Below are positions 32,212-52,737 of a stretch of 64,000 nucleotides of DNA, in pieces. A model generated the notes under the pieces. It was not told the origin of the DNA. It made no database searches and saw only the letters and a list, made by a program, of their open reading frames with translations. The position numbers and the translations under genes were made by a program. Each line of letters begins with the position of its first letter. Within the stretch, counting starts at the first letter, position 1. Location: NCBI RefSeq assembly GCF_056746865.1, contig NZ_CM163382.1. The stretch is one strand, 5' to 3'.

Positions 32212-32238
32212 AAAACGGACCTCCGTGGAGGTCCGTTT
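32212..32238 (-). terminator. Rho-independent terminator downstream of tRNA-Phe 3' end (native chromosomal flank)
   Basis: Perfect hairpin aaacggacctcc/ggaggtccgttt followed on the minus strand by a T-rich run, placed directly 3' of the tRNA-Phe terminal nucleotides. Confidence 0.5.
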
Positions 32239-32247
32239 ATATGAATT

Positions 32248-32266
32248 TGGTGCCCGGACTCGGAAT
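32248..32266 (-). repeat. 19-nt 3'-terminal fragment of tRNA-Phe (att-site direct repeat, distal island junction)
   Basis: tggtgcccggactcggaat is the reverse complement of the 3' end of E. coli tRNA-Phe (…ATTCCGAGTCCGGGCACCA); sequence diverges from the tRNA body at 32267, so no intact tRNA is present here. Confidence 0.8.
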
Positions 32267-32513
32267 GAAACTGGTTATATAACCAATTGTTTTGTATCGA
32301 CTGTTTTATCCTTGTTCTTTTTGGGGCCACCAATGAGGCCCCCATGTGCAATTCGAATTCTTTTGACGCTATAATCCCTCTTTTTTGTGCTTTGTTGTAA
32401 TCATTTTGTCTGGTTCGATATGCTGAATCGCGGAATCGAAGTAACAACAAAATACAGAGATTTATAAAATACCTGGCTACCTGTGTTAGGGAGCGTTAAC
32501 GCACAGATTTTGT

Positions 32514-32840
32514 TTATGGCTGCCAGAAATGATCTGATGGTTTGTCGTCTGGCTCTGCAAGTACCCTGTTGATATCCCGGGAACCATGAACGATACGTTC
32601 GATACGAACTTCAGTATCCAGTACCCTGAACAGCAGAAGGTAACGACCATACGAACAACCTCTGATCCCAGCCCCTAACTCGGGTCTTTCTCTGTAGAGT
32701 ACTGGCGATTCGGCTATCAACAGACATTGTTGGTAAAGCTCTTCGGTAAAACTGATTGCACGGACAGGATTATCCTGAGCGATCCAGTCACCTATAGCTT
32801 CAAGATCGTGTTCTGCTAATGGTGAAACAGTCAGTTTCAT
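32514..32840 (-). CDS. parE: Type II toxin, ParE/RelE family
   Basis: 108-aa ORF with ParE-like conserved C-terminal region (…RIERIVHGSRD); 4-bp overlap with upstream antitoxin gene. Confidence 0.85.
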   Translation of the reverse strand: MKLTVSPLAEHDLEAIGDWIAQDNPVRAISFTEELYQQCLLIAESPVLYRERPELGAGIRGCSYGRYLLLFRVLDTEVRIERIVHGSRDINRVLAEPDDKPSDHFWQP

Positions 32841-33100
32841 ATTGGCTGTTCACCTTCTGCCATCTTTTTGTATTTGTGCGTCAGTCGCCCGAATACCTCT
32901 TCAGCACTTTTACTTTCACCGCTGTTGATGCCTGCGGTCACGGCGCTCTGGAGTGATTCAAGCTTTATCTGCTGTTCCCGTTCTTCCAGAGCACGAAGTC
33001 CGGCACGAATGACTTCACTTGTATTGTTATACCGACCACTTTCTATTTGTTCGCGGATAAACGTTTCAAAGTAAGGACTGAGGGATACACTGGTAGGCAT
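32837..33100 (-). CDS. parD: Type II antitoxin, ParD family (ribbon-helix-helix)
   Basis: 87-aa ORF MPTSVSLSPYFETFIREQIESGRYNNTSEVIRAGLRALEEREQQ..., typical ParD/COG3609 signature. Confidence 0.85.
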   Translation of the reverse strand: MPTSVSLSPYFETFIREQIESGRYNNTSEVIRAGLRALEEREQQIKLESLQSAVTAGINSGESKSAEEVFGRLTHKYKKMAEGEQPI

Positions 33101-33171: not shown

Positions 33172-34038
33172 TTATGCCTTGCGGCTTTTGTTCACTGTGC
33201 TTGCCAGGGCTTCCGAGTAGTGTCTGGCAATAATATCATTAAGCCTGTCAACCAGTTCTGGTTTCCTGAACGTGATGTGCGCGGAGCCCTTCTTAAAGTA
33301 TCTGATGCTGAACATCTCATCTTCATAGTCCTCTTTACCCTGAACAGACTGGATGTGGTCATCCAGATGAATGGTGATGTTTTCCCGGTTGTCGGGGATC
33401 GGTTTGCCGCTGAACAGATACAGCATTCTTTCCAGGTCGGCAAGTCGATCTGCCTGTTGCCCGGTGATAAGATGAAACCCCCACCGGTCCCACCTCACCA
33501 GGTTGTTGACGATAATTTTACTGCCAAATTTACAGGGTGAATTGTTTTCGTAATTCCAGCTCAGTCCCCTGAAAACATTGATCACCCCACGCTCAAACAC
33601 TTCATCTTTGTTCTGGTGCAGTTGTTCAAATGTGCTCAGAATGTTCGCTTCACTGATTTCCGGAAAATTATCGTATTCCAGTGACCGGTACCATGTATCA
33701 CGGGCCTGCGCATCCATTAATGACAGCATCCCGGAACGTTGCATCAGGTCACGCCAGATTTCGCGATCGAGATTGCGGGTGATGGCTTTCATTGCTGTTT
33801 CCGGTTTATCCATCAGCCAGCAGCCACAGCGAAAATCCTGTTTCATGGCCCAGTCCCGGGCGGTTTTACCTCCAATGCTTTCCGTCAGAACTGAGATTTC
33901 AGTCAGTTGCCGGATAAGTGTGTCGATTTGCAGCAGTGTACTCTTTCGTACAGCCAGAATGTGGCGGATACTGGTTGAGCAGATAACGTCCGTATGCCCG
34001 TTGACCACTTCCGGACGGGAGGCTGTGATATCAGACAT
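33172..34038 (-). CDS. Island-associated hypothetical protein (DUF4942-like)
   Basis: 288-aa ORF with good coding character; family assignment from recalled gene context downstream of cbtA-type modules, not verified. Confidence 0.6.
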   Translation of the reverse strand: MSDITASRPEVVNGHTDVICSTSIRHILAVRKSTLLQIDTLIRQLTEISVLTESIGGKTARDWAMKQDFRCGCWLMDKPETAMKAITRNLDREIWRDLMQRSGMLSLMDAQARDTWYRSLEYDNFPEISEANILSTFEQLHQNKDEVFERGVINVFRGLSWNYENNSPCKFGSKIIVNNLVRWDRWGFHLITGQQADRLADLERMLYLFSGKPIPDNRENITIHLDDHIQSVQGKEDYEDEMFSIRYFKKGSAHITFRKPELVDRLNDIIARHYSEALASTVNKSRKA

Positions 34039-34122
34039 AATCGATATTCCTTTTTGCAGATAAATGAAAACGCCAGCCCTGTTCAGGCTGGCGTCAGTGG
34101 AATGAAGTCTGGTGAGTAATAT

Positions 34123-34320
34123 TTACCGGTTCTGGTGCAGAAGCTGCAGATGACGAAGAGTACGGACATCCTCCCGGGCCCGTTCGATACAGGGCAACAG
34201 TGCTGCCGAATCCGTTTTATCCTCATCGTTGTCAAAGATAATTCCCGATTCGCAGTCGATATTGTCCTGCAGCCACACAATCAGAATATCCAGTGCTGTT
34301 TCCGTGGTTAATGATTTCAT
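34123..34320 (-). CDS. DUF957 family small protein
   Basis: 65-aa ORF MKSLTTETALDILIVWLQDNIDCESGIIFDNDEDKTD... matching recalled CP4-prophage small-protein family. Confidence 0.7.
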   Translation of the reverse strand: MKSLTTETALDILIVWLQDNIDCESGIIFDNDEDKTDSAALLPCIERAREDVRTLRHLQLLHQNR

Positions 34321-34331
34321 GTTGTTCCTGG

Positions 34332-34820
34332 TTACCAGTCGAAAGTGGGCAGGTCAGGCAGGCATTCAGCGCTGGCATCCAGATGAATGAGACTGACGCC
34401 ATAACGCCGGATAAGAGTGACAACCAGACGGCGGAACGTTTTTGACAGTCCCAGGCGTTTAAGTCGCAGAACCGGGTATGACCACGCATCGGTACGTAAC
34501 AGATATCCGCTACCTGTAAAATGAATCCATTCTGATTCGCCGGTGTCATTCGTCTGATGTGACAGCGAGTACAACCAGGCATTGTCCGTTTCCGTGATAT
34601 GTGCGGTACTGCAGCGTATGCCGGTAAGGGCCGCAGATGGTGGCGTGCGCTCTGCTGATGCCCGGTCAGATTCATCAACAACACGAAGGGAGTAACCGTT
34701 ATCGCAGACCACGTTAATCAGTTCAGCGAGAGTAACACCATCGACGTCAACGACAATGCGCCCCATGTTCAGTGCCTGCACGTTAATGCTGTCGGCTTCC
34801 AGCGTCAGGGCCAGTTTCAT
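34332..34820 (-). CDS. DUF5983 (YeeW-like) family protein
   Basis: 162-aa ORF immediately downstream of cbtA, overlapping its stop by 4 bp. Confidence 0.65.
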   Translation of the reverse strand: MKLALTLEADSINVQALNMGRIVVDVDGVTLAELINVVCDNGYSLRVVDESDRASAERTPPSAALTGIRCSTAHITETDNAWLYSLSHQTNDTGESEWIHFTGSGYLLRTDAWSYPVLRLKRLGLSKTFRRLVVTLIRRYGVSLIHLDASAECLPDLPTFDW

Positions 34821-35194
34821 TGTTTCGCCCCCGGATGTTTACCCAAGGTAATGTTATTTACCGTTCTGTAATTGTCGCGGGCCATCAGGCCGGTTGCCCG
34901 GCGGGCCCGGAGGATATCAATACTGTTTATTAACTGAGAACGGGTACAGGCGCTGAATCCCGGCTGGTCGGTACGTACCAGTGCGTATTTTTCAACGAGA
35001 AAGTTCACCGCATCGCACAGTGAAATGCCTGCCTCAATATGCTGCTCAATCACACGTTCATCAGCGAACGGTGTGTCATTCAGTGTGAGGCCGTAATGCT
35101 GGTCCAACAGTCGGGTGAGCAGTGTCTGCCAGATGGTGACGGGAGACGGGCAGCGCGATGCCTCCCGTACGTGTGTGTCAGGTAATGTTTTCAT
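34817..35194 (-). CDS. cbtA: CbtA-family toxin (cytoskeleton-binding toxin, YeeV/YkfI/YpjF family)
   Basis: Translation from MKTLP… is near-identical over most of its length to recalled YeeV; start set at ATG 35194 with GAGG RBS rather than the longer upstream ORF start. Confidence 0.85.
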   Translation of the reverse strand: MKTLPDTHVREASRCPSPVTIWQTLLTRLLDQHYGLTLNDTPFADERVIEQHIEAGISLCDAVNFLVEKYALVRTDQPGFSACTRSQLINSIDILRARRATGLMARDNYRTVNNITLGKHPGAKQ

Positions 35195-35240
35195 CTTAAG
35201 TTCTCTGTAACTGGTAGTGCTAAAGGTGAGATATTCGGGG

Positions 35241-35615
35241 TTATGAGGTGGTTGCGGGTGCCAGTGTCGGATAAACAGCCATATAAACGTAACCACAGCT
35301 GCCGAGGGTGTCGGCTTCGCAGGTCAGCCCTCTGGCATACAGCGTGACGGTATGCTGATGGCGGGGATTCAGTTCACCGCTGGTGAGCATGAGTTCCAGT
35401 TGTTTCATCAGCAGCGGAAAGGCCTGGTCCAGATGATACGCATCCGCGTCGCTAAACTGCCCCCTGATACCGGCGCGGTCGGCAAGGTAATGCAACTGAT
35501 TGCCCTCCTGCACCAGACGTGCCCCGAAACAGGGCGTCACGGTGCAGGGGAGCCCCCACCAGGGGCGGTCGTTGTTGTTGTCGGGATGCGTTGTCCCGGG
35601 GTGTGTGTCTGACAC
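35241..35615 (-). CDS. cbeA: CbeA-family antitoxin (YeeU/YafW/YfjZ family)
   Basis: 124-aa ORF MSDTHPGTTHPDNNNDRPWWGLPCTVTPCFGARLVQEG… matching recalled YeeU. Confidence 0.85.
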   Translation of the reverse strand: MSDTHPGTTHPDNNNDRPWWGLPCTVTPCFGARLVQEGNQLHYLADRAGIRGQFSDADAYHLDQAFPLLMKQLELMLTSGELNPRHQHTVTLYARGLTCEADTLGSCGYVYMAVYPTLAPATTS

Positions 35616-35694
35616 GATAAAATCCTCACAGAAAATCGGTTAAGAATGCTCCGATGGTGGCGATAATTCGGCTCATCAGAATGCCCTTTCTGAT

Positions 35695-35916
35695 TCAGTT
35701 CAGGGTAACGCTCATCAGACGGACATACGGACCAAAACTGTCCTTACGGCGTTCAGCAAACACGGCCAGCACACCGGGAATATCCTGCACTTCACGGCCG
35801 GTATACGTATCCGTGCTACCGTGCCAGCGGTATTTACCGGTACAGAACGGAAAAAGACGGGATGCAGGATGCTGTTGGTGAATACGCATGGCTTCACCAC
35901 GGGTGATGATTTTCAT
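35695..35916 (-). CDS. DUF987 (YeeT-like) family protein
   Basis: 73-aa ORF in conserved position between radC-like and cbeA. Confidence 0.75.
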   Translation of the reverse strand: MKIITRGEAMRIHQQHPASRLFPFCTGKYRWHGSTDTYTGREVQDIPGVLAVFAERRKDSFGPYVRLMSVTLN

Positions 35917-35978
35917 AATGGGATACCTCTGAAGACAGAAGATAAAAGTGAAAACAGGTGTGATGTGGTTGTGACGGG

Positions 35979-36455
35979 TTAAAGCAGACCGTGTTCGGCA
36001 AAGGAGAATACCTGGTTGCCACCGACTATCAGATGGTCCGGCACCCGGATATCCACCAGGGCCAGCGCCTGTACCAGACGTTCAGTGATAAGCCGGTCTG
36101 CCTTACTGGGGGTGACTTCACCGGACGGGTGATTGTGCGCCAGCACCACGGCAGCGGCATTGTGGTACAGGGCACGTTTAATCACCTCCCGGGGATGGAC
36201 TTCTGTGCGGTTGATGGTGCCTGTGAAGAGGGTTTCACCCGCAATCAGCTGATTCTGGTTGTTCAGATACAGCACCCGGAACTCTTCCCGCTCCAGTCCT
36301 GCCATGTTCAGAATCAGCCATTCCCGTGCCGCATGCGTGGAGGTGAAGGCCACGCCGGGCTCATGAAGATGACGGTCCAGGGTTTTCAGGGCCCGCTGAA
36401 TGAGGCTGCGCTCGCCGGGCGTCATCGCTCCGGGCAGAAAGGAAAGCTGTTGCAT
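35979..36455 (-). CDS. RadC-like JAB-domain protein (YeeS/YfjY/YkfG family)
   Basis: Contains JAMM motif region HNHPSGEVTPSKAD; start trimmed to MQQLSFLPG…. Confidence 0.85.
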   Translation of the reverse strand: MQQLSFLPGAMTPGERSLIQRALKTLDRHLHEPGVAFTSTHAAREWLILNMAGLEREEFRVLYLNNQNQLIAGETLFTGTINRTEVHPREVIKRALYHNAAAVVLAHNHPSGEVTPSKADRLITERLVQALALVDIRVPDHLIVGGNQVFSFAEHGLL

Positions 36456-36470
36456 TATGCTTCTCTCCAT

Positions 36471-36950
36471 TCAGTCGATGATGCGCATAATGGCGCTGCA
36501 TTCCGGATGCTGCAGGGCGTAATCCCGCAACCGATAATAATGGACCGTCATGGCATAATTCTCCGTACGACAGGCGTGATGACTGTACGTCATCAGACAG
36601 GCGGCAATGCCGGCGGCTTCCGGGCTCATTTCAGCGCGGTTACCGTTCATGACGTTAAACAGCACCCATGTTTCGTCATCATCGTCATCCGGTTCGGGTG
36701 CCATAAATGCGCCACCGTTGTTCAGGGTGTACAGATTCCAGATACCACCGCAGTAGTCTTCACACAGACGGTCCATCCAGCCGAAGACACGGGGCTCCAG
36801 GGTCACCCACTGTGGAATGAGGCCAAAATGCTGCGGCCAAAAGCTGATGCGCTGTTCATCAGGGACGAGGCTGGCAACCAACTGAGGCGGATTATTCTCT
36901 GGTGTTGTAGCTGAATAAATTGTGGGGGTATTCTGAGAAACGCTTTTCAT
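36471..36950 (-). CDS. Antirestriction protein (KlcA/ArdB-like, YfjX/YafX family)
   Basis: 159-aa ORF with acidic stretch DDDDDE typical of this family; conserved position. Confidence 0.8.
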   Translation of the reverse strand: MKSVSQNTPTIYSATTPENNPPQLVASLVPDEQRISFWPQHFGLIPQWVTLEPRVFGWMDRLCEDYCGGIWNLYTLNNGGAFMAPEPDDDDDETWVLFNVMNGNRAEMSPEAAGIAACLMTYSHHACRTENYAMTVHYYRLRDYALQHPECSAIMRIID

Positions 36951-37031
36951 GAGATAACTCCTTAAATAACAAATAAAAGTGTGTTTTTCAGGAACGAAAG
37001 CTGAATGATTCCCTCACTCAGGGAAACGGCA

Positions 37032-37850
37032 TCAGCGCAGGCTCTCCAGCATCGTTTCTGCCATCACCCACAATGCGCGGTTGAGTTTAATATCGGTGTC
37101 GATGCTGTGAATGGCCCGGGTATGGATACGTTTTCCTTTTGCACTGCGACCGGAAATCCCGCCTTTCAGCATATTCTCCTGGATGGTCTGATATGCGCTC
37201 CACAGGTCCTTACCGTAATCCTCCCGGCGTCGCGGCGTCAGAATGTCGGCGGTGGTGACGGGCTGATGTTCGTCACCATAACGGTAAGTCAGTGCCGCCT
37301 GTGCCAGCGCCTGGCGTGCCGGTGGCGGCAGGACCAGCGACTGCATGGCATCACGCTTCTCCTCTATCCGGTCAAACACGCCCACCACTTCGTAAGCCCC
37401 TTCAATGACTCTGTCCACCACATTTCCCCGGTGCGGAACACGCACTTCCCCCAGAGACTGGCCACAGACGCACCCGTTCTGGCAGACGAACCTGAAGTAA
37501 CCCGGCAGCATCTGGTAGCTGGAGGTACCGTCATGAGAGTTGAGCAGAATAATTTCAGGGACATGTTCTCCGTTTATCTCTCCGGCCCGCCGCAGACGCA
37601 GCATGTGTTTGGTATATTCCCGGCGGCTCTGGTCGCGCACACGGGTCTGGCAGGCGAAGAACGGCTGAAAGCCTTCCCGCTGCAGATTTTCCAGGACGGT
37701 AATGGTGGGAATGTACGCATACCGTTCACTGCGGGAGGTGTGCCGGTCTTCTCCAAAAATACTCGGGACGTGGTACATCAGTTCTTCGCGTGTCAGTGGG
37801 CGCTCCCGACGGATCTGATTTACATGACCAAAACGACTGGCTAATTGCAT
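37032..37850 (-). CDS. DUF932 (YfjQ/YafZ-like) family protein
   Basis: 272-aa ORF in CP4-like module. Confidence 0.75.
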   Translation of the reverse strand: MQLASRFGHVNQIRRERPLTREELMYHVPSIFGEDRHTSRSERYAYIPTITVLENLQREGFQPFFACQTRVRDQSRREYTKHMLRLRRAGEINGEHVPEIILLNSHDGTSSYQMLPGYFRFVCQNGCVCGQSLGEVRVPHRGNVVDRVIEGAYEVVGVFDRIEEKRDAMQSLVLPPPARQALAQAALTYRYGDEHQPVTTADILTPRRREDYGKDLWSAYQTIQENMLKGGISGRSAKGKRIHTRAIHSIDTDIKLNRALWVMAETMLESLR

Positions 37851-37939
37851 ACTTTGCTCCTTATGAATGAATTAGCGGTATAAACGAAAAAGCCGCGTCT
37901 CCCGGAGAAGACGCGGCCTGATGGATGAAATGAAGACGT

Positions 37940-38173
37940 TTATTGCCTGAGAATTCCCTCACTGGCGAGATACGAATTTAGCTGTTTTCCGGCATCAGGT
38001 TCAAAATTCCAGCACCGCCAGCGTAGCTGCCCTTCGGCATTGCGGATAACCAGCCGGAAATGCGTTCCCTGGTCATCTTCAATAAGCACATTGCGGTAAG
38101 CTGTTGTGACGGCAACCGCCTGTTCGCGTGAGAAAGGGCCTTCGGGCAATAAAACAGGGTGGCAGTCCGACAT
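37940..38173 (-). CDS. DUF905 (YkfF/YpjJ-like) small protein
   Basis: 77-aa ORF; family assignment by recall and context. Confidence 0.6.
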
Positions 38174-38178
38174 ACCGA

Positions 38179-38856
38179 CTATTTTCCGATAAATTCAACG
38201 CTGGCGCTGGTGGCATTACCGTCAGCACCAACCGTGACGGTCACTTTGTCGTACGCACGGTCTTCAGGATTGAATACTTCAAACTCAACCTTATTGCCTT
38301 TTACTTCGTAAGAGCCAAAATCAGCGGTTTCTGTTGTTTCCTCGTCATATTCCCGGGCGTATGCCTGCCGGGCAGCCTGCAGGACGGAATCTTTATTAAT
38401 AGTGGTCGTCTGTTTCGGGGAAAAACCGGCAAGTGATGTGACAAATTTCGGACAGACCTTCAGCATATCACCGCGGGTGAATTCCATTCGTACACCAAAT
38501 GCCTGTAAAACGGACACATCACGCTCTGCTATGGAGTGAACGGCTTTTTTGACCATTTCCGGCGCCTGTCCGATTTCCACCTCAACAGCCCTGAATCCCG
38601 TCTGCTGATTACACATTTGTGATGTGGGGATCAGGTTACCGTTAATACTGATACGGCTGCCCAGGAGCGTCTGTACACCATTCGGGCATCCCTGCATCAG
38701 GCCAGTAATACCAATCGTGCCATTTTTCAGCATTACCAGCGCCTGACCATCTTCCGTCATGGTCTGACACCAGCCGTTTTTGACAGCCCAGTTGCCGGCG
38801 GAGGCGGAGAATGATGCCACAGTGAACAGCAGGGGAAAAAGAGCTCTGGTATTCAT
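38179..38856 (-). CDS. Predicted exported protein of unknown function (signal peptide)
   Basis: ORF 38179..38961 trimmed to [23 protein letters not shown]… (Sec signal peptide, AxA cleavage site, GAGG RBS); no family recognised. Confidence 0.6.
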
Positions 38857-39003
38857 GACTGACCTCTGAAATGAACGTACGGTGTTATTGATAATGATGG
38901 AAGGTATGCAGTGACTGTTCAGGGAATGACGTAGCCGTATATTTAGTTTTCTGTTCAACATATTGTCTCCATACCTGTCGGGACGGCTTTGGCAGGCCGG
39001 CGA

Positions 39004-39684
39004 TCACAGGTTAAAGGTGTTGATAAGTTTATGGATGAAAGAGAAATGTGGCAGGGCGGAGATAAAACGCTCTTCAGCGACCAGACTGTGGATGTGGCCT
39101 CTCCGTTCAAACCGTTCTGATGTCAGGCTGACTGATTTGATATCTGCCAGAGGAAAGACCTGCAGTTTTCCCTTCTGTAACGCGATCAGATACCAGCTAC
39201 CGCTGTAATAAATGAGCCGGCAGGGCTCCAGTGACGGATACCATCGCTCAGTCATCAGAGAGATGTGGATACACTGTCTTATTGCCAGGATGAGTTGCGA
39301 GAAACACTCGGGGAACGTTGCAGTGATATCCGGCGCCGGTAGCCAGATAAGGCAGGGAGAGGGCTCCTGGTTGTCGGTAAGACAGGTTATCAGTCGTCCG
39401 TTCCGGAGCGGAAGTATCCGTGCGATCCCGGTATTCTGTATAAAAGAAAGCATTTCAGGGATCGCACCTGGGCTGCTCTGTCGTCTGAGACTGTACCGGC
39501 CATTTCTGTACTCTAAGTCCAGGTGAACCAGACGCTGATGAAAATCGCGCTGTAAAGTACGTTCTGTAACGCCAAATTCATCTGACAGTGTTTTTAGTGA
39601 CAGAGATTCTCCGGCCATCAGTCGGCTGATAATGAGTGATAAGCGAACCGCCAGGCGATCATGCCGGGAACGATTATCAGACAT
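39004..39684 (-). CDS. WYL-domain transcriptional regulator (YfjR-like)
   Basis: 226-aa ORF with N-terminal HTH (…LSDEFGVTERTLQRDF…) and C-terminal WYL-type domain (…YSGSWYLIA…). Confidence 0.7.
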   Translation of the reverse strand: MSDNRSRHDRLAVRLSLIISRLMAGESLSLKTLSDEFGVTERTLQRDFHQRLVHLDLEYRNGRYSLRRQSSPGAIPEMLSFIQNTGIARILPLRNGRLITCLTDNQEPSPCLIWLPAPDITATFPECFSQLILAIRQCIHISLMTERWYPSLEPCRLIYYSGSWYLIALQKGKLQVFPLADIKSVSLTSERFERRGHIHSLVAEERFISALPHFSFIHKLINTFNL

Positions 39685-39886
39685 AGATGTGCACTCCGTA
39701 AGAAAACATCTTTTATTTCATGATGTTATTATGCATCATGATGTTGAAAGGATGTGTCGCATCCGGATAATCAGGAATAAAATGCAGCAGAAAAAATATT
39801 CTTTTAATTATCTGATTTTTAAGCATGATTTCATAAAAAGAAGAATGCTTGTTAATCCAGCGACACATCCTGTCGGCGTGAGTGTG

Positions 39887-40771
39887 TCAGAACAGACGAT
39901 CCCACAGTGTGACCAGCAAGTGGATAATGCGGTCCCGGGCCTTACGCAGAAGCTGTAACATCCAGGCCGGAAAGCTGAATTGGGCAACGGCAGCGTCAAA
40001 GCTTTTCCCGATGGCGTCACCAAAAGTTTGTTGTGCGTGTTTCCGGGCCTGTTCAGAGCGGTTTTCCCCCCGGATATGTGAATAAACTGCGCTGGTTGCC
40101 TGTGGTGGCAGTGCGTGGATCATCAGCGACACCAGTGCCGGAAGATTCCAGCCGACAGGTGCGGCAACGGAGAGTACCGGAAATGATGACGGGAACAGGG
40201 TTGCCACCCGGGCTGTTACTGTCGCCAGTGAGAGTTCCTGCTGACGGGACGGGCATTTTTCTGTGTCGTTCCATTCTTCAGCAGGAAACACGCGATCGGC
40301 ATGGCTGAGAACAAACAGAAAACGCGAGGGATCTGCACCTTCATTCAGTAAAAACTGATGCATGGCAATATCAGCAGCATACGCACGTTCATCAGCCCGC
40401 AGGATCCAGATAATCAGATCCAGTTCCGGCAGTAACTGACGGTAAAGCTCCCGGTATTCCTGATCATGCTGCGGTGTCTCACCAATGCCGGGCATATCGA
40501 CCAGCGTCATTCTGCGTTCACCGAGCTGCAGGGTAAGACGATGAGCCTGGCGGGTGCAGCCGTTCAGGGGATGCGTGGCGCAGATACGGGACTGAAAAAT
40601 GGCATTACACAGACTGCTTTTGCCGGTGCCGGATTTACCCATAATGCCAATTACGGGCTCGTAATGAATAACACCGTGGAGATGTTCAAGGATTTTCTGG
40701 CGAATTTCTTCAGGAAGAAACGTCAGATATGATTTTACTTGTGCAGAGAGGGAAGAATGGCTGAATGACAT
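39887..40771 (-). CDS. P-loop GTPase, YfjP/YeeP/YkfA family
   Basis: 294-aa ORF with G1 motif GIMGKSGTGKSS and G3 motif DMPGIGE. Confidence 0.8.
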   Translation of the reverse strand: MSFSHSSLSAQVKSYLTFLPEEIRQKILEHLHGVIHYEPVIGIMGKSGTGKSSLCNAIFQSRICATHPLNGCTRQAHRLTLQLGERRMTLVDMPGIGETPQHDQEYRELYRQLLPELDLIIWILRADERAYAADIAMHQFLLNEGADPSRFLFVLSHADRVFPAEEWNDTEKCPSRQQELSLATVTARVATLFPSSFPVLSVAAPVGWNLPALVSLMIHALPPQATSAVYSHIRGENRSEQARKHAQQTFGDAIGKSFDAAVAQFSFPAWMLQLLRKARDRIIHLLVTLWDRLF

Positions 40772-40955: not shown

Positions 40956-42086
40956 ATGACCGGACGTAAAAACAAATGTGTCAGAAAAAATTGTAACAAT
41001 CAGGTTTTCTCAGTAAAAATGGCAGTGGAGAAAAGACTGTGCAGAAAACATTATGAGAGGTTTTGTGAGCTCAAAAAAAGAAGAGAGCAAAATCCTGTTC
41101 ACAGATTAAATGAAGCATTGCCAAGAAAGATAAAAGGACCAAAAAGTAAGAAAAAATTAGTAAAAGAAAGAGAAATCATTAACAGCAGAAAAAAACATAA
41201 ACAGGAGCAGGGACCATCGCTGACTGAACTTAATAAAAAAGTTCGTGAGATACTGAAAACTCCTGCATGGAGAACGCTGGAAACGAGAATTCGAAGAAAC
41301 GGAATCACATTTAAGTCAAAAGCAGAGTTAGATGCGCTTTCTGAACTTTATGCAATTTATTCATGGGTTTCATATTGCAAACGGGGCGATAATTATTCTG
41401 TGTGGTTTTTGAATTGTCCGGATGTAAATATAAACCTTCATGTGTGCGAATGCCGGTCTTCTGAAAGCGATTGTTATCTGCCATCTCGTTTTATTATTCT
41501 TCCAGCTCCATTAAGGCAAAAAGTAAAAAGAAAATACTCGGCTAATTCGTCTGGGGTACCAGGACATAATGATTCAAAAAGTCTTTATAAGACAGTTTTG
41601 TCTGTTTGTGGTGGGAAAAGAGAAACCGAATTGTTCTTTTATTCACTGCCAGTAAAGACTAATCATCATCCTTACTGGATTAAAAGTGGTGTGGTTAAAA
41701 GATTTCCTCCTGTTTTTGGTTTGTTGTTTTATGAACAGGAAAGATTAACAGGAGGTGTTTTTCGTTATGTGTTGATAAGGTTTTATAATACTTTTAAGGA
41801 GAATTTGTTTTTTGTTGAGATTGTCTCGTGCTGTTTTCTTGTTGAGCTTTTTCATGATATTGATTCGTTTTTTATAAATCAACGATTAAGTAAGCTGGAA
41901 AGTTTTATAGATAAGTGGAGGGAGGGTAAAGAAATCTGGATAAAAGCATATCTACAACTGATACATAATACATTGGGAATAACTGAAACAGAAAAACTCG
42001 TCAATCTATATAATTCATTTTTTACTGATAAAGTGGTTATCTGGGATGAATCAGTAAAAAAAGTTAAGTGGATTTATGAGAAATAG
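40956..42086 (+). CDS. Orphan hypothetical protein in AT-rich cargo locus (Lys/Arg- and Cys-rich N-terminus, aromatic-rich C-terminal half)
   Basis: 376-aa ORF with GGAG-like RBS (ggagatgagagg) before ATG; markedly AT-rich codon usage compared with flanking genes; no family recognised. Confidence 0.6.
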   Translation: MTGRKNKCVRKNCNNQVFSVKMAVEKRLCRKHYERFCELKKRREQNPVHRLNEALPRKIKGPKSKKKLVKEREIINSRKKHKQEQGPSLTELNKKVREILKTPAWRTLETRIRRNGITFKSKAELDALSELYAIYSWVSYCKRGDNYSVWFLNCPDVNINLHVCECRSSESDCYLPSRFIILPAPLRQKVKRKYSANSSGVPGHNDSKSLYKTVLSVCGGKRETELFFYSLPVKTNHHPYWIKSGVVKRFPPVFGLLFYEQERLTGGVFRYVLIRFYNTFKENLFFVEIVSCCFLVELFHDIDSFFINQRLSKLESFIDKWREGKEIWIKAYLQLIHNTLGITETEKLVNLYNSFFTDKVVIWDESVKKVKWIYEK

Positions 42087-42629
42087 TACCATTTAACTGA
42101 AAGCCACCATAACGTCTTTTTGACTACATCCATGATAATGAGTCTCATTTTGATTTCGTTTTTTTTGTTTCGGGAAATTTTCCGAACATCAGTGATAATG
42201 AGGGTTTTGTTGTTTTTGTTTCTGCAATGTTTGAGGGCTGTTCCTGGAGATGATTCGTTGCTTGTGAGCAAGAGGTGGTCCGCTTTACTGGACAAGTTTT
42301 GCATTTGTTGAGTGGTGAAATGGAAGTAAAAAGAGCCCCTTTCTGGCAATGACTGAAAAAGTCAGTAGCGTGTGACAGTAAAAACTAACATAAAGTGATT
42401 ATCGTATGATTATGACAATGACTTATAACTTTTATGAAAAGAACAACAGAAACTATGAAACCATAGCAGATTCCTGAGACCATGTTTTCTGAGGTAGAGA
42501 AAATAATTCAAGAGTAAACCAGTTTGTTTTTTGGTCAGTAAAGAACCATGCCTGATGTGAAAACGGGTAATCAACATTCAGTCTGCATGAATGTCTGAGA
42601 ATGTTGCTAATGTCGGTATGATACTATAT

Positions 42630-42725
42630 ACACGTATTTTACTAAGTATTTTTACTAAGCATTTCAGTAAGTGTTTTACCAGACATACACGTGTTTTCAT
42701 AAACAGCCCTATAAGTGTTTTCATT
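42630..42725. repeat. Cluster of degenerate ~12-bp direct repeats (iteron-like) in AT-rich intergenic region
   Basis: Motif (A/T)(C/A)TAAG(T/C)(A/G)TTTT / ACACGT(A/G)TTTT recurs at about 42634, 42646, 42659, 42671, 42691 and 42715, first four with ~12-bp spacing. Confidence 0.5.
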
Positions 42726-43601
42726 AAGCATTGCTGTACACATTGCTTTGTCTGAAACACATCCAGTTTAGTAAATCTTTACGTTAGCTAAAATCAGTTT
42801 AAAGCTGCTGTAAAACCTTTCTGTTTAAGCAATCAATCTGCTATTCGATTTTACTGATGTTGCGTTTAACCTTTTCTGAGTTTTTGTGTTTTTAGTCGTT
42901 AACCTGAGACAAGTGTCTTTACGTAAAAACGCAAATCCGACTGAGATAACCTGGTGTGATTTACGGTGTGCTTGCGACGATTTTGTTAAATGGTTCTATG
43001 GATGATTTTGTGACGATGAGATTGATGAGATGATTAACTGGCCCTGGTGTTTTTTCTCAGTGCAAGGTGATTATCTTCATCATAAGGCTCTTTTCAGAAA
43101 AAGCGTGATGATTGGTTCTGGTGTTTTGATTCAGATGAGATTTACGTTATCGATGGTTAATCGTTTTTATGGTGTGTTGAAAAGTAACGTTTTCACGATA
43201 AGAAAATCGATTCTGATATTGGTGAACTTTGTTCTTGTGGCAGGGTTATCTGTAAACAGGTTTTAAGTGCGCTATTCGGCTCTGTGATTGAGTTGTGTGG
43301 TTAAGCTGTAGGTTTTGGTGTTGTTGTTGATTTACAGCGCCAGAAAGCGTTCTGATTGCGTTTTTGATGTTTTGTTTGCACGTTCTGTTGATCCGTTTCC
43401 CTTCAGGCTTTGTAGTTTTTAAAAACCATTTATGCCGTTGTTGTGTGTTTTATCCTGCGTGTAGGTTTATCTTTTCTTCGTGGGGGATTCATTCTGTTTT
43501 AATCAGGAGCCATTGGCGTTGCTCAATGGCGGGATGCCGTAAAGTTTTACCGCAGTGATTAATGATGTGAAGTCAATCCAAATCAACGGAGATCTCTCAT
43601 C

Positions 43602-44333
43602 ATGAATCAACCAATACACAATGCTTACTGGTTATCCCGTTTTGAAAGTATTCTCAACAGTGCCCTGGCGCAACACCGTGCCGTCTCGTTAATCCGGGTG
43701 GATTTACGTTTCCCTGAGTATATGCCTGCCACCATCATGGATACCGATTTAGATTCAGCGGTGATTTCTCGTTTTTTTGCATCCCTGAAAGCAAAAATTC
43801 AGGCTTACCAGCGACATAAACGACGTGCCAACAAGCGTGTGCGTGCAACCACTCTGCGTTATTTCTGGTGTCGGGAGTTTGGCAAGGAAAAAGGCAGGAA
43901 ACATTATCACGTGATATTACTGCTCAACAAAGATACCTGGTGCTCGCCAGGGGATTTCACCGTTCCTTCTTCGCTGGCGACACTGATCAAGCTGGCATGG
44001 TGTAGTGCTCTGCATCTTGAGCCCTGGCAGGGTAATGGACTGGTTCATTTTTCCAGGCGGACGCCTTTCCGTAAACCGACATCATCTGATGCTCGCCCTT
44101 CTTCCGATGATACGCCTTTGTCGGGTGGATGTTCTGATACCAGGAAGGCTTCAGACAAAAAGCCGGGTGAAGCCGCTGTTCTCTGGATCAAGCGTGGTGA
44201 TGTGGAAGCGCTGCAGAAAGCCCGGAACAGAGCCAGTTATCTCGTGAAATATGAGACGAAGCAGCATGACGGTTCCGGGCAACGTAATTATGGTTGCAGT
44301 CGTGGGCCGGGGCGTCTGCTGGATGGCAGGTGA
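43602..44333 (+). CDS. Inovirus Gp2-like / YagK-YfjJ family protein with HUH-type and YxxKYxxK motifs
   Basis: 243-aa ORF; contains HYHVILLL (HUH-like) and SYLVKYETK (rolling-circle Rep motif-3-like). Confidence 0.7.
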   Translation: MNQPIHNAYWLSRFESILNSALAQHRAVSLIRVDLRFPEYMPATIMDTDLDSAVISRFFASLKAKIQAYQRHKRRANKRVRATTLRYFWCREFGKEKGRKHYHVILLLNKDTWCSPGDFTVPSSLATLIKLAWCSALHLEPWQGNGLVHFSRRTPFRKPTSSDARPSSDDTPLSGGCSDTRKASDKKPGEAAVLWIKRGDVEALQKARNRASYLVKYETKQHDGSGQRNYGCSRGPGRLLDGR

Positions 44334-44689: not shown

Positions 44690-45262
44690 ATGAATGCTAT
44701 CCCTTATTTCGACTATAGCATGGCGCCCTTCTGGCCATCTTATCAGAACAAAATCATCGGCGTTCTCAACCGTGTGTTGCGCGAGCAGTCCTGCTCCCGA
44801 ATACGGCGGATCCTGCTTCGTCTGCCGGGGGAACATGGCAACATCTTCAGCGACAGAAAAACCTGGTTCGGTATGGCCTTTATCGAAACCGTCAGTGCGC
44901 TGATGAATGCAACACCCGGACGCGACCTCTGCTGGCTCCTGACACGTCATCCTGAAAAACCGGAATACCACGTGGTGCTGTGCGTCAGACAGGAATATTT
45001 CGACGGCCCTGAGCTGGACCGGTTGATTCTGGATGCCTGGAGCAACGTACTGGGCTTCGCGTCACCGGGTGAAGCAGCACCGTACCAGAAACAGATAACC
45101 CGGGATGTGGTGCTGGACAGTTGTTCACCGGACTGCGAAGAGAGACTCAAAGAGCTGATATGGGCGTTCAGTGATTTCGCCCGCGATCGTCGTGGTGTGC
45201 GCGATCCGGAAGCCCGTTACCTCGCCGGTAATCCCTGGTATCCCGTAGCAGGCCAGCTCTGA
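44690..45262 (+). CDS. Divergent Gp2-like paralog (hypothetical)
   Basis: ORF 44660..45262 (TTG-initiated in track); ATG at 44690 gives MNAIPYFD…; shares N-terminal R-h-x-L-R-x-P-x-E motif with 43602..44333 but lacks clear HUH and Tyr motifs. Confidence 0.5.
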   Translation: MNAIPYFDYSMAPFWPSYQNKIIGVLNRVLREQSCSRIRRILLRLPGEHGNIFSDRKTWFGMAFIETVSALMNATPGRDLCWLLTRHPEKPEYHVVLCVRQEYFDGPELDRLILDAWSNVLGFASPGEAAPYQKQITRDVVLDSCSPDCEERLKELIWAFSDFARDRRGVRDPEARYLAGNPWYPVAGQL

Positions 45263-45330
45263 AAGCTCAGCTCAGCAGATTCACCCGCATTTGCCCAACA
45301 TTCATAAATCTCACAGAGGACATTCTGACC

Positions 45331-45567
45331 ATGTTGACCTCAATGACAGGTCACGACAGCGTATTGCTGCGTGCCGACGATCCCCTGATCGACATGAACT
45401 ACATCACCAGCTTCACTGGTATGACCGACAAATGGTTTTACAAGCTGATCAGTGAAGGCCATTTCCCTAAACCCATCAAACTGGGGCGCAGCAGCCGCTG
45501 GTACAAAAGTGAAGTGGAGCAGTGGATGCAGCAACGAATCGAGGCATCACGAGGGGCAGCAGCATGA
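45331..45567 (+). CDS. alpA: AlpA-family phage regulatory protein (HTH)
   Basis: 78-aa ORF with AlpA-like core (…ITSFTGMTDKWFYKLISEGHFPKPIKLGRSSRWYKSEVEQWMQQR…). Confidence 0.8.
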   Translation: MLTSMTGHDSVLLRADDPLIDMNYITSFTGMTDKWFYKLISEGHFPKPIKLGRSSRWYKSEVEQWMQQRIEASRGAAA

Positions 45568-45767
45568 AACGTGTTGTAATGCCGGTACGCTGGCAATGTG
45601 CAAAATACCAGCGTTGGTATTGTGGAAATCAGCCCTGTCCCTGGTGCTGGCGACCTGCTGCCCCCGTCTGTCATTCCTCGTTCTTCGCTGTAACAGGCAT
45701 CGTACCGGTCTCGGCGTGCTTTCCTGCGTACCGACACCGGTTCAGCAACATTCAAGGGGATCAAATC

Positions 45768-46304
45768 GTGCAAATAACCGAAACCGTACTTTCAGAGCCG
45801 GTGGAAATCCGGCGTTTTATTCAGCAGGCGGTGGATCACTGGCCGCGTCTGCTGGCCGTCCACTTCACACTCCATTCGGCAGAAGGAAACATCAACGGAC
45901 AACAGATTCATGCATTCTGTACTTCCTTTTATGAACGTATTACTGAGCGTAATCACACGACCAGTCCATCATCGCCGGTGGTATTACGCTGGTTGCGGGA
46001 ACAACATGGAGGAGCAACAATGCGATGCCTGTTGCTGCTCAGCCAGACGAGTATTTGTCACCCGCGAGCCAGTGTCACAGTTGATGAACAATGTTCGCAA
46101 GTGGTGGATTTACTGCAGCAGACCTGGCGGGGGATGGATACGGGCGGACAATGTCGGGTGGAAAGGTGTTTTCAGGCTGCCCGGGGTGATACATCCGGCC
46201 AGTATATTGCGTTAAAAACAGTTGCATTGTCTCTGGGGTTACCGGTTGTGACCGGTATTACCCATCGCCCGGTACAGCGCTGTACATTGATTACAGCTCA
46301 GTGA
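45768..46304 (+). CDS. Hypothetical protein, possible third Gp2-like paralog
   Basis: In-frame part of ORF 45522..46304; GTG at 45768 preceded by AAGGGGA RBS; alternative ATG start at 45564 overlaps alpA stop (ATGA). Confidence 0.45.
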   Translation: MQITETVLSEPVEIRRFIQQAVDHWPRLLAVHFTLHSAEGNINGQQIHAFCTSFYERITERNHTTSPSSPVVLRWLREQHGGATMRCLLLLSQTSICHPRASVTVDEQCSQVVDLLQQTWRGMDTGGQCRVERCFQAARGDTSGQYIALKTVALSLGLPVVTGITHRPVQRCTLITAQ

Positions 46305-46321
46305 ACAGCGCTGTTGTGCAG

Positions 46322-46833
46322 TCAACGAGGTTTTCTGTCTTTTCGTCGGTCATTCAGCATCATTAAACGGGTCTCTGCCTCTTTCTGTTCCTGTGGTGTC
46401 ACTTCCCCGCACGGCTGACCGTTCAGGTTGTAACGGGCGCCACCTGCTATTAACGCACGGTAATAGCGCGGAGACTGCACATAAGACGCCACTGCTGCAT
46501 GTAATGTACCAGCGCCAAACGCCAGTTCTCGGATGGCGATATCCTGTATCAGGTCGTCAGGTATCCCCACTTTAAGTGGTTTTGTTTTTTTCCCGGTTGA
46601 ATGACTCAGGCCAGAGTTCCACAAGACGAATAATGCGCTTACGGTTTTTGCTCTGGCGTTTTGTCATGTCGCCACGGTGTTTTATCAGCAGGTTTCTGTT
46701 TATCGTTCAACTGTGGTATCTGGTCACCGGCCTTCATTTTGTATGCTGTGTCCGTTTTATCCTGCAGCGGCGTTGCCGGTGATTTACTGAAAATACCCTG
46801 CGGTTTACGGTTAATGGTCAGAGTTACCATCAA
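46322..46833 (-). pseudogene. Two consecutive ORFs (64 aa and 100 aa) in different frames, possibly one disrupted gene
   Basis: ORFs 46639..46833 and 46322..46624 on the same strand separated by 14 bp with a frame change; no family recognised. Confidence 0.3.
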
Positions 46834-47188
46834 TTTTGTTACCTCGCGCTGTCAATGGAAGTAGTACCTCATCCGATATCTGAAAATGTTTTCCGGTGGA
46901 TGTTACAGCGAATTTCATGTAAGACATGTTGTTGTCGGTATTGTTCAGTACTGTGCGTTGTGAGCGTATTCGTTATCAGACAGAGGGGCAGGGAACAAAT
47001 GGCGTAAACGGACATCTCAGTGCCTGAGAAACAGTACAGGTCAGGCCATCATGGCCTGCAAACAGAGCCCTGGCGACCCCGTGGCCGAAAACGAAACAAT
47101 AACCCGCGCGCAGTGCGAGGAATCCGGATGTGAAGCAATCAGCAGGTAATATTAATGGCAGGACCAGCAGGTTCTTTAAACAAACGAA

Positions 47189-47951
47189 GGTGGTGACTCC
47201 AATTAGTAGAACATATATTTTTCGATAAAGGCACCGATGACTTTTTCATGAAGTTCTACAGAGCGCGAGAAACAGATAGTTCTGCGGGCCAGACGTTTGA
47301 TTCGGGTTCTCAGAGGTAGATGTTGCGCTCAATGCGCTGAGTAAAAATCTTACCAGTCAGATGCTTCTCCTTCGGTAACTCTCTGGTGTAACTACCCCAT
47401 TCGTCAGTGGTCAACATACCGATGGTAAAAGGGCAAGCAGCGCCAGCAATTCACGACAGGTTTAATCAGTCCGTAGGCCAAAAGTGTAGGCCAGAACGCC
47501 ACCAGTTTTCGTGTTGTACGTGTACCAGAGCCAGTGCTGTCGCGCTTTACTGCCGACAAAACTCCATTGCTCATCAAGTTCGCAGATGAGTGCCATATCA
47601 GCATGAGCGACCGGGTATGACGTTATTCTTCGTGGCGAGAGTTTTTTAAAGTCCGGATGACAGTATTAATGCCGATTTTCAGCGTACGGGCAGTATCGCG
47701 AACTCCGGCACCGTTGAAAGCCATTTCAGTGATTTGCTCTTTAACTCCCGGTTTACGGGCCTCGTAACGGTAAGTGAGCTGAAGCACTCGATGACAGTCA
47801 CGGCAGCGAAATCGATCATGTCCTTTGGGTTCTTCCCGTGACGGTAAACCTGAACGGACTGGCAACAGGAGCAATGAAGGTTAACTGTGACCATGAAAGA
47901 ACCTTAAAAGTGGCTATTATACTCCTAATTCAACTAATTGGAGTCATTACC
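47189..47951 (-). mobile_element. IS1-family insertion sequence (divergent isoform), insB apparently degenerate
   Basis: Terminal inverted repeats ggtggtgactccaatt (47189-47204) and ggtaatgactccaatt (rc of 47936-47951); length 763 bp; insA intact; conserved TTAAAAAAC frameshift motif at insA end; InsB-like translation needs at least two further frame changes. Confidence 0.75.
47623..47874 (-). CDS. insA: IS1-family InsA (zinc-finger/HTH transposition regulator)
   Basis: 83-aa ORF with CxxC…CxxC zinc finger and C-terminal HTH resembling IS1 InsA (…GINTVIRTLKNS…). Confidence 0.8.
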   Translation of the reverse strand: MLLLPVRSGLPSREEPKGHDRFRCRDCHRVLQLTYRYEARKPGVKEQITEMAFNGAGVRDTARTLKIGINTVIRTLKNSRHEE

Positions 47952-49329
47952 GTATTCATAATGGATTAGGTTCAGCAGTTGCTGAAGTGCTTGTAGAAAC
48001 TTGTCCTGTGCCCATGCGTCGGGTGGGGGTTAAAGAGCGGTATGGCCAGGTTGAAACTCAGGACTTTTTACAGAGAGAGTACGGGTTAACCGCGCAAGCT
48101 ATTGTGGCGGCAGCCAGAGAGCTATTGTAATTCATGGAGTTTGTTTACCATTCTGTTTTTCTTAAAAGTGAGTGTCTGTGCGGTCACTAAACTCGGTAAT
48201 AAAGCAGTTCATTGCAGGATAAGAAGCGTTTGGTTGTGTCGTTTTACCGTAAGAACCGACCGCCGTATGTATCCATTAAGCCAGTATTGGTAACGTAGGT
48301 GCCCACCTTTTCAAACTGGTGGGCGCCTGTTATGGAGCAAAAACATTATCCGCAGAACCCCGCAGATCATTTTCAAATGAGTTAAACTTCAAATGGTTAA
48401 ACTGGCTTTGCAACCAGGAGCCTCTGTTGCCCGTATTGCCCGGGAACACGATATCAATGATAACCTCCTGTTCAAATGGCTCAGACTCTGGCAGAACGTA
48501 AGGTAAAGGGAGATGAAAAAGGCAATAGCAGAACTGAGTGACAGTGAAACCATTCTGGCGTACAGGGTTGGATGGTGAAACTGATAAAAAAACCCTCTGA
48601 AAATTCTGTCAGAGGGTGTAGTCAAAAATGGTAGATATTTACGATGCAGTAATGCTTTCACTCCGGTAATTAATTTCCGTGATTAACTGCTTTCGATCAA
48701 TAAAGGAATTGCAAAAGTGTGATCTTGTTCACGACATCGTGGATGATAATATGCCTGATGTCTGAATCCGGAAACAGTGCTCTGGCGGGTTTCATGTGAA
48801 GTTGACGGATAAAAAATCCGCACGACCAGACAGACGTGCGGTTTACGAAATTCGTAACAAGAGGCTTTTCTACGGATCACGTGGTGCGTGCCACGTGAAA
48901 TTTTTGTAGCGCAAAATGTGCAATGTGTAAATACAAGGAAGGAAAAAAGTTAAATTGGTAGAAGTCCATGCCTGCCACATGTACGTCTGCATTCCTCGTT
49001 TTGAACAGAATTCTCACCAGACATCGTGAATTTCTCATTCAATCATCAGAGATATTAACCAGGATTTTTATTGTTTTGTGATATCAGCAGTGCAGGTATA
49101 CAGACGTTAAAGTAATCAGGTTTATTATAACCACCTTTACAAAGTTGTATATGTTTATAATTTAATGATTTTAATGCCAGTCGTTTTCTGCTGCTTAAAT
49201 TGAGGTCGCATATTATACACAATAATATTCTTAGCATTATTAAATTAATAAGAGAGGATTCTTATCACTGTATTTTTGCTCCGCACTACCGTTCTGGCTG
49301 GTGAAGTAATAATACAGGAGAATAACAGA

Positions 49330-50871: not shown

Positions 50872-50909
50872 CAGGTCAGGATTTAGATATCTGTCCCGGG
50901 GGGAGTCCC

Positions 50910-52248: not shown

Positions 52249-52281
52249 GGGGAGTCCCCCGGGATATAATGAGGTACAGAG

Positions 52282-52737
52282 ATGCTGGATATAATCCTGG
52301 CGACGAGAGATATTTATTTTGAAAAAGCCCTGCGAGAGGTATTTGGAACCGTAAGCAGTCGAATCAGATATATAGAAGATGCCATATCAGACAGAAGAAG
52401 GGTGCAGTCAGGCAGGTCATTCAGATATTATTTTGTATTCTGTGATGATGAGTATACAGATATTGTTCGTATTCTTTTTACCGGAGAGGCCTGCTGTATT
52501 CTGAATAAGTCGATGCTGAATCTGAGAGCGGCCGGAGGTGTGTTGACGCTGGAAGAGCGCAGAGCGGTACTGAACCGGTATTACAGAGGTTTAAGTATTG
52601 CGGAGATTACAGAAGAGACGGGGCAGAATGACAAGACGGTATACGGTCATCTTCGTCGTGCACTGCAGCGGTCTGGATTCCGGAAGGGGCGTTTTATAAA
52701 GGGGAGAGAAGCGGCGGGGGATTCAGGTGTTGAATAA
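52282..52737 (+). CDS. Putative transcriptional regulator with C-terminal LuxR/sigma-70 region-4-like HTH
   Basis: 151-aa ORF; C-terminal LTLEERRAVLNRYYRGLSIAEITEETGQNDKTVYGHLRRALQR; GAGG-like RBS (gaggtacagagATG). Confidence 0.6.
   Translation: MLDIILATRDIYFEKALREVFGTVSSRIRYIEDAISDRRRVQSGRSFRYYFVFCDDEYTDIVRILFTGEACCILNKSMLNLRAAGGVLTLEERRAVLNRYYRGLSIAEITEETGQNDKTVYGHLRRALQRSGFRKGRFIKGREAAGDSGVE

Follow-up and report, generated by a model that had tools for sequence, protein, structure and literature searches.

We examined a 64,000-nucleotide stretch of contig NZ_CM163382.1 (RefSeq assembly GCF_056746865.1; hereafter the window), and in it a block of twelve genes at positions 34,123 to 40,771 that encodes a GTPase, a WYL-domain regulator, an exported protein, DUF905, DUF932, an antirestriction protein, a RadC-like protein, DUF987, CbeA, CbtA, DUF5983, and DUF957. 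The region is likely the canonical distal backbone of an integrative island of the CP4/P4-integrase type, located at pheU beside cadC and made up of three functional parts. The finding is an ordinary one: the block is already known, and its genes follow the order that is usual among enterobacteria. The exception is K-12, in which the regulator cassette lies on the opposite side of DUF932. A small new detail is a pair of dyads present upstream of every YfjR-family regulator gene examined.

The first of the three parts would be a portable cassette of the YfjR-family regulator, the exported protein of 225 amino acids (aa), and DUF905, closed by a hairpin terminator. Judging from conservation, the regulator probably controls its own promoter via two dyad boxes about 110 bp apart. 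The second part would be an establishment set (DUF932, a KlcA/ArdB-type antirestriction protein, a RadC/JAB protein, and DUF987), homologous to leading-region genes of conjugative plasmids, that probably protects or establishes the element upon entry into a new host. The remaining genes, those for CbtA/CbeA, DUF5983, DUF957, DUF4942, and ParDE, would form a maintenance set.

Gene content and order in enterobacterial genomes

A list of open reading frames (ORFs) and Pfam scans agree with the genes, strand, and positions given in an initial annotation of this DNA, DUF957 being identified by its RefSeq name only. All twelve genes are intact and on the minus strand, with intergenic gaps of -4 to 202 nt (Table 1). 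They include the same-strand run of GTPase, DUF932, antirestriction, RadC/JAB, DUF987, CbeA, and CbtA genes that characterizes a CP4-type backbone. The CbeA and CbtA family genes are adjacent, antitoxin first, with a 46-nt gap, which is the layout of the CbtA/CbeA type IV system. Masuda et al., in 2012, reportedly found that CbtA blocks FtsZ and MreB polymerisation and that CbeA counteracts this, using K-12 proteins that are 89-91% identical to those in the window. Together with DUF4942 and ParD/ParE there are 15 intact ORFs, and near-identical copies of the region are likewise intact according to RefSeq.

We surveyed gene order in 5426 complete Escherichia coli genomes by megablast, counting a genome if one place in it covers at least 80% of the query, so that the counts are lower bounds and depend on identity. 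The whole 7-kb block is colinear in 1763 of the 5426 genomes, with best matches that are 99.9% identical in a single piece in many sequenced strains, and the 3-kb stretch GTPase-WYL-exported-DUF905-DUF932-antirestriction is colinear in 1587. The window-type DUF905>DUF932 junction occurs in 3490 genomes, and the K-12-type GTPase>DUF932 (yfjP>yfjQ) junction in 572. The latter was found in 360 records at 99% identity or higher; the four shown at 100% include laboratory derivatives of K-12, MC1061 for example, and an O16:H48 isolate. The median number of copies of the block is three per genome. The idea that this order is unusual is therefore not borne out: exactly this order, with no inserted genes, is common in E. 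coli.

Beyond E. coli we sampled gene order in eight enterobacterial lineages. A Klebsiella assembly, K. oxytoca-type and Yersinia-type loci, and two further lineages have the order GTPase > slot > DUF932 > (antirestriction) > RadC, where the slot is the place held in the window by the regulator and the exported protein, and their blocks end in CbeA > CbtA > (DUF5983 > DUF957) > DUF4942. Pectobacterium- and Serratia-type loci have the window-type order without DUF932. The K-12 order was found in one Citrobacter freundii locus, the other seven lineages being of the window type. Order and reading frames are retained between genera at 40-75% protein identity. The GTPase is 97% identical to that of STEC711, 52-65% identical to those of Klebsiella-type loci, and 40% identical to that of one further lineage (L019), compared with 34-37% for K-12 YfjP, YkfA, and YeeP and the Nissle copy. 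This split indicates that at least two deep GTPase lineages head such blocks.

The apparent rearrangement thus arises from taking K-12 as the reference. As first described, the order does differ from K-12, since in CP4-57 and CP4-6 DUF932 directly follows the GTPase gene and in the window it follows DUF905. CP4-57 carries the same families on one strand (yfjP-yfjQ-yfjR-ypjK-yfjS-yfjT ... yfjX(lfgA)-yfjY(lfgB)-ypjJ-yfjZ-ypjF), among them DUF987, CbeA-like, and CbtA-like genes. Its identities to the window are 73% for DUF932, 43% for the regulator, 67% for the antirestriction protein, and 78% for RadC, and the same two dyad boxes precede its regulator gene. Its order is GTPase > DUF932 > yfjR > ypjK-yfjS-yfjT ... 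antirestriction, so that, unlike in the window, DUF932 stands between the GTPase gene and the regulator cassette. CP4-57 further differs in its envelope proteins YpjK, YfjS, and YfjT, which are not homologous to the 225-aa protein, in having additional genes or pseudogenes (yfjU, yfjV, yfjW, ypjI), in lacking DUF5983, DUF957, and DUF4942, and in its insertion site, which is ssrA rather than pheU.

In CP4-6 (ykfA...ykfI) the order is GTPase > DUF932 > (pseudogenes) > yafY-ykfB-ykfF (DUF905) > antirestriction. Its DUF905 is 65% identical to that of the window by tblastn and 62% by direct blastp to YkfF. Both dyad boxes are kept before ykfK and no regulator homologue is detectable; the pseudogenes that follow the boxes, ykfK and ykfL, may be a remnant of the regulator cassette. 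In CP4-44 (yeeP...cbtA-yeeW), the slot is occupied by Ag43 and YeeR, and neither DUF932 nor the antirestriction gene is present; its YeeS, YeeT, CbeA, and CbtA share 89-98% identity with their counterparts in the window.

Differences between the window and other islands at pheU, pheV, and selC in commensal and pathogenic E. coli (for example the Nissle Ag43c region and islands of STEC strains) are confined to slot content; SHI-3-type aerobactin islands presumably belong to the same group. Synteny with K-12, Nissle, STEC711, and Klebsiella confirms that the block is a known, recurring one, and the same gene set has been reported for pheU, pheV, and selC islands (PMC6174562).

Slot content and the question of defence cargo

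The slot holds Ag43 in Nissle, Ag43 and IrmA in another strain, and the regulator with three small proteins in STEC711. In each regulator-bearing lineage, one to three downstream genes encode products with a signal peptide, a lipobox, or a membrane segment; they belong to the YpjK, YfjS/YafY, YfjT/YkfB, and IrmA families, a family of 206-210 aa, and the 225-aa family of the window. Together with DUF905, the regulator and envelope-protein genes behave like a single portable unit, which can lie on either side of DUF932.

According to the initial annotation, the slot is rearranged, and the WYL regulator and exported protein inserted there may be defence cargo under local control. The two genes do lie between the GTPase gene and DUF905, but the slot is not rearranged, and its arrangement is common rather than the result of an insertion. 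Nor is the WYL gene peculiar to this slot: K-12 has a homologue in YfjR (43% identity), in a similar regulator and envelope cassette past DUF932. Differences in slot content among strains (Ag43, IrmA, YfjS/YfjT, and others) could be expected of such cargo, the operator-like dyads suggest local regulation, and BrxR and CapW, the closest fold matches of the regulator, control defence loci of the BREX and CBASS type, respectively. Beside the window regulator, however, there are no recognised defence genes. PADLOC models run on ten proteins (those from the GTPase to RadC, DUF5983, DUF4942, and the 376-aa neighbor of the GTPase) revealed no defence family, the matches in and beside the slot being to WYL models and, weakly, of the GTPase to LeoBC/LeoA (LeoBC E 3e-8); NCBIfam and PADLOC scans together gave generic GTPase and WYL matches only. 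In addition, all products encoded downstream of the regulator are envelope or secreted proteins, with no enzyme or nuclease among them, and in Klebsiella the exported-protein gene occurs without the regulator. We consider a defence cargo very improbable.

The 225-aa exported protein itself has no match to a Pfam family and no homology to YfjT, YfjS, or IrmA. Its named homologues are from Enterobacteriaceae (Escherichia, Klebsiella, Citrobacter, Enterobacter, and Lelliottia), and its C-terminal domain has a generic cystatin/PepSY-like fold. The Klebsiella gene lies directly between those for the GTPase and DUF932, with no regulator, so the exported protein need not be paired with one. In a K. 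oxytoca-type locus (L016, 5749-6651), a 181-aa gene product matches residues 4-139 and a 112-aa gene product residues 156-225. These two genes are adjacent; within the family, the two domains have thus become either fused or separated.

The YfjR-family regulator and its operator-like dyads

The regulator is a genuine, short protein of the winged helix-turn-helix (wHTH)-WYL type. Its WYL domain scores 23.7 bits in Pfam against a cut-off of 21.8 and matches the PADLOC WYL model at E 2.6e-18, and the HTH_11 match is just under its cut-off (23.1 versus 25). Identity to K-12 YfjR extends over the full length, and named homologues that are 39-68% identical are all from Enterobacterales genera. Sequence searches of the PDB with the regulator, and with DUF932, gave no match. 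The top 24 PDB matches of an AlphaFold2 model (predicted local distance difference test score, pLDDT, of 70) are CapW, PafBC, BrxR, and DriD, with Foldseek E values of 1.7e-7 to 1e-3, a probability of 1.0, and sequence identities of 13-19%. The window protein shares with these regulators the fold (a wHTH at the N terminus, then a WYL beta-barrel) and dyads upstream of its own gene. At 226 aa it is 40-100 residues shorter than they are (266-330 aa), and we take the extra length of the CapW/BrxR/PafBC-type regulators to be their C-terminal (WCX) domain. The model has three short helices past residue 195, after the WYL barrel, with pLDDT of 58-77. The neighbors also differ: they encode envelope proteins, and not CBASS, BREX, or DNA-damage functions.

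The regulator gene is preceded by two dyad boxes. We compared nine lineages of YfjR-family loci: the window, K-12 CP4-57, the CP4-6 relic before ykfK, five loci labelled by genus after their regulator clusters (Klebsiella oxytoca, Pectobacterium, Yersinia, Serratia, and Citrobacter), and one more. A dyad of the form GGACA-N5-TGTCC is located at -182 to -191 relative to the start codon, and its core, GACA-N5-TGTC, is invariant in all nine. In lineages other than that of the window a second box, GTCCA-N5-TGTCC, is found at -72 to -80 beside -10-like hexamers. The rest of the intergenic DNA has diverged, and invariant columns upstream of the -10-like region are confined to the two boxes (alignment A5). 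In the window the distal box, CGACAGGATGTGTCG, and the proximal box form an inverted repeat that is 93% complementary, with arms 99 nt apart. The boxes accompany the regulator gene whether its upstream neighbor is the GTPase gene or DUF932, and the full dyad was found nowhere in the remainder of 413 kb of loci, all regulator-less loci included.

Upstream of the ykfK pseudogene of CP4-6 (locus L003, 6030-6155, plus strand) both YfjR-type boxes are present as GGACAGGTGGTGTCC and GGACAGGGTATGGAC. Standing there without an intact regulator gene, they are a relic of the same cassette. Further matches to GACA-N5-TGTC (at 44346 of the window, at 3013 of L010, inside K-12 yfjR, and in L008) were rejected as operators on the basis that they have no outer G/C pair; their number is what chance would give, about 1 per 64 kb. 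The distal dyad was also rejected as a terminator of the upstream gene, as it has a 5-bp stem and no T-run and is tied to the WYL gene under either neighbor.

Between the regulator and exported-protein genes no terminator is predicted, and a strong hairpin follows DUF905; in K-12, hairpins also follow ykfF and ypjI. This pattern points to a single regulator-exported-DUF905 unit, which, from the conservation of the putative operators, is probably autoregulated. The earlier proposal of local regulation is plausible to this extent, as two conserved, putative operator-like dyads travel with the WYL gene. It agrees with results of genomic systematic evolution of ligands by exponential enrichment (gSELEX), in which YfjR is classed among the single-target factors, its target being its own operon (PMC8249747).

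Relatives on plasmids and in phages

Homologues of DUF932 with about 63% identity are found in at least 5000 plasmid records, 4426 of them conjugative. For example, the IncF plasmid pEQ011 carries homologues of DUF905 (58% identity) and DUF932 (64%) in a stretch that also holds psiB and hok and is immediately followed by traM and the tra operon. We take this stretch to be the leading region, the record having no oriT annotation. Homologues of DUF905, DUF932, and KlcA lie beside plasmid transfer genes. Antirestriction activity against type I systems has been demonstrated for homologues of KlcA/ArdB. Among 50,697 phage records, 27 match DUF932, all at 41% identity or less, and the ten listed are jumbo phages of 350-370 kb. 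No phage structural genes are annotated in the island. With close relatives on plasmids and distant ones in phages, the label "prophage" is therefore historical.

Leading regions of plasmids have been described as islands of anti-defence functions, with klcA and toxin-antitoxin genes among their content (PMC11541004). By analogy, the block looks like the establishment-and-maintenance set of a transferable element. Differences from IncF/IncI leading regions are that these are plasmid-borne, whereas the block is chromosomal and bounded by a tRNA attachment (att) repeat, and that no ssb, psiB, oriT, or relaxase was identified in the block, although no search was aimed at oriT or relaxase.

In a different reading, the island carries the block along as the remains of a cryptic P4-like prophage, inert and with no function at present. 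The historical name "CP4 prophage" suggests as much, a P4-type integrase remnant and AlpA-like and Gp2/YfjJ-like genes lie nearby, and the K-12 copies hold the pseudogenes ykfK, ykfL, ypjI, and yeeP. However, decay is not what is seen in the window, where all 15 ORFs are intact, as they are in near-identical RefSeq copies. Order and frames that persist across genera at 40-75% protein identity, non-coding dyads conserved amid diverged DNA, and DUF932 homologues that are plentiful on plasmids and almost absent in phages likewise speak against a relic, which we regard as improbable.

It has also been reported that the K-12 yfjXY-ypjJ-yfjZF operon is induced by MqsR and repressed by MqsA, and that YfjY/LfgB degrades MqsA (PMC10846083). 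The module might on this basis serve mainly host stress physiology, for instance through degradation of MqsA by the RadC/JAB protease (LfgB) under oxidative stress. The evidence comes from a single study of the K-12 CP4-57 copy, and this role would leave unexplained both the occurrence of the same genes in plasmid leading regions and the median of three copies per genome. As the main function of the block it is unlikely; it is compatible with an island backbone rather than exclusive of it, and a stress role may coexist with an establishment role.

Several points weigh against the interpretation of the region as an island backbone with an autoregulated cassette and an establishment set. The evidence for the locus is computational throughout, the two AlphaFold2 models are of moderate confidence (pLDDT 70-75), the megablast counts vary with identity, and transfer of the island by conjugation is argued by analogy with plasmid leading regions. 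As regards the operators, the window has a degenerate proximal box and, as its distal dyad, a symmetric variant (CGACA...TGTCG), a promoter scan was not above chance (9 sites versus 10.9 expected), and chromatin immunoprecipitation with exonuclease digestion (ChIP-exo) detected no DNA binding by K-12 YfjR (PMC8464067).

Island edge and surrounding genes

The initial annotation had the genes running toward the end of an island, and this is what we find. Past DUF957 lie DUF4942, ParD/ParE, a fragment of the pheU 3' end, and a hairpin that we take to be the native pheU terminator, followed by an integrase fragment at about 31.9-32.05 kb and then cadC. The island is thus a tRNA-associated one, with the block at its distal end beside the att repeat, as in CP4-type elements. 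K-12 presumably has a similar integrase remnant (yjdQ) at the same pheU/cadC spot. A tRNA scan of the window found no intact gene, pheU being represented by the 23-bp att fragment alone. The intact pheU of the island must therefore lie beyond the 64 kb, and the island continues rightward for more than 31 kb. In APEC O2-211 the same ParD/ParE pair occupies another chromosomal site, with a full-length integrase after it; the block therefore occurs at several insertion sites.

Table 1. Features of the block, the adjoining island edge, and the divergent neighbor of the GTPase gene (positions in the window).
Feature	Position	Strand	Evidence or remark
Hairpin adjoining the pheU fragment	32213-32238		
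Copy of pheU 3' end (att repeat, 23 bp), left edge of island	32248-32270	-	2 mismatches, 0 expected by chance
ParD/ParE type II toxin-antitoxin pair, island edge	32514-33100	-	Pfam ParD_antitoxin and ParE_toxin
DUF4942	33172-34038	-	Pfam E 6.6e-67; position shared with Klebsiella and other loci
Terminator-like hairpin after DUF957 ORF	34069-34095	-	
65-aa ORF, DUF957	34123-34320	-	RefSeq name; no match among models in the Pfam copy used
DUF5983 protein	34332-34820	-	Pfam DUF5983_N and DUF5983; 4-nt overlap with CbtA stop codon
CbtA (YeeV) toxin	34817-35194	-	Pfam E 4e-63; 89% identity to K-12 CbtA
CbeA (YeeU) type IV antitoxin	35241-35615	-	Pfam E 8e-55; 91% identity to K-12 CbeA
DUF987 (YeeT-like)	35695-35916	-	Pfam E 9e-39; 95% identity to YeeT
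RadC-like JAB protein (YeeS/YfjY=LfgB-like)	35979-36455	-	Pfam RadC E 3e-45; 98% identity to K-12 YeeS
KlcA/ArdB-type antirestriction protein	36471-36950	-	Pfam Antirestrict E 9e-37
DUF932 (YfjQ/YafZ-like)	37032-37850	-	Pfam E 6.6e-51; 73% identity to YfjQ
Terminator-like hairpin after DUF905	37890-37919	-	13-bp stem, 8 GC pairs, T-rich tail
DUF905 (YkfF-like)	37940-38173	-	Pfam E 1e-31; 62% identity to K-12 YkfF
Exported two-domain protein, 225 aa	38179-38856	-	Sec signal peptide ...SASA|GNW; four conserved Cys
YfjR-family wHTH-WYL transcription regulator, 226 aa	39004-39684	-	Pfam WYL and HTH_11; 43% identity to YfjR
Proximal operator-like box	39746-39760		Inverted copy of distal dyad (14/15 identical), beside -35/-10-like hexamers
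Distal dyad CGACA-N5-TGTCG	39861-39875		191 bp before WYL start codon; once in the 64-kb window
GTPase (YeeP/YkfA/YfjP-like, distinct lineage)	39887-40771	-	MMR_HSR1 E 4.9e-15
Conserved hypothetical protein, 376 aa, divergent from GTPase	40956-42086	+	35% GC stretch; Cys-rich N-terminus (KCVRKNC...CRKH)

The 376-aa protein encoded next to the GTPase has no Pfam, NCBIfam, or PADLOC match. It is 29% identical (E 6e-44) to the product of a gene at the same position in Klebsiella, and is therefore an uncharacterised backbone gene of these islands. Between it and a Gp2/YfjJ-family gene (43602-44333) there is a 1.5-kb AT-rich stretch (42087-43601; 35-43% GC) with short ORFs only, which is annotated as gene-free in two of three matched genomes and has no Rfam matches. 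An Rfam scan of 31.5-45.5 kb at E<=1 gave two sub-threshold chance matches and no isrC-like RNA.

The right part of the island (about 45000-64000; approximate, mapped from loci L005 and L009) contains a frameshifted ProQ/FinO gene, remnants of insertion sequences (IS1, IS256, and ISL3), a YadA-like adhesin gene at about 49.4-51 kb, a gene for a transporter of the major facilitator superfamily (MFS), and, from about 58 kb, the aerobactin operon iucABCD-iutA. In this it presumably resembles the SHI-3 aerobactin island at pheU.

Implications for the island family

For this block the K-12 cryptic prophages serve poorly as a reference, as about two thirds of complete E. coli genomes have the window-type DUF905>DUF932 junction. 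Departure from the K-12 order is therefore no signal of new cargo. For the K-12 regulator, whose DNA binding is disputed, the shared dyad pair provides a concrete binding-site hypothesis.

A tentative idea, which we think doubtful as it stands, is that the short WYL regulators of the YfjR family are ligand-sensing switches, the ligand perhaps being single-stranded DNA as in DriD, CapW, or PafBC. Upon island transfer or cell damage, they would turn on an interchangeable secreted or envelope cassette via the two operators about 110 bp apart. If this were true, roles for the cassette (YfjS, YfjT, IrmA, and the cystatin/PepSY-like 225-aa protein) could include exclusion at the surface, resistance to phages at the level of the envelope, or interaction with the host.

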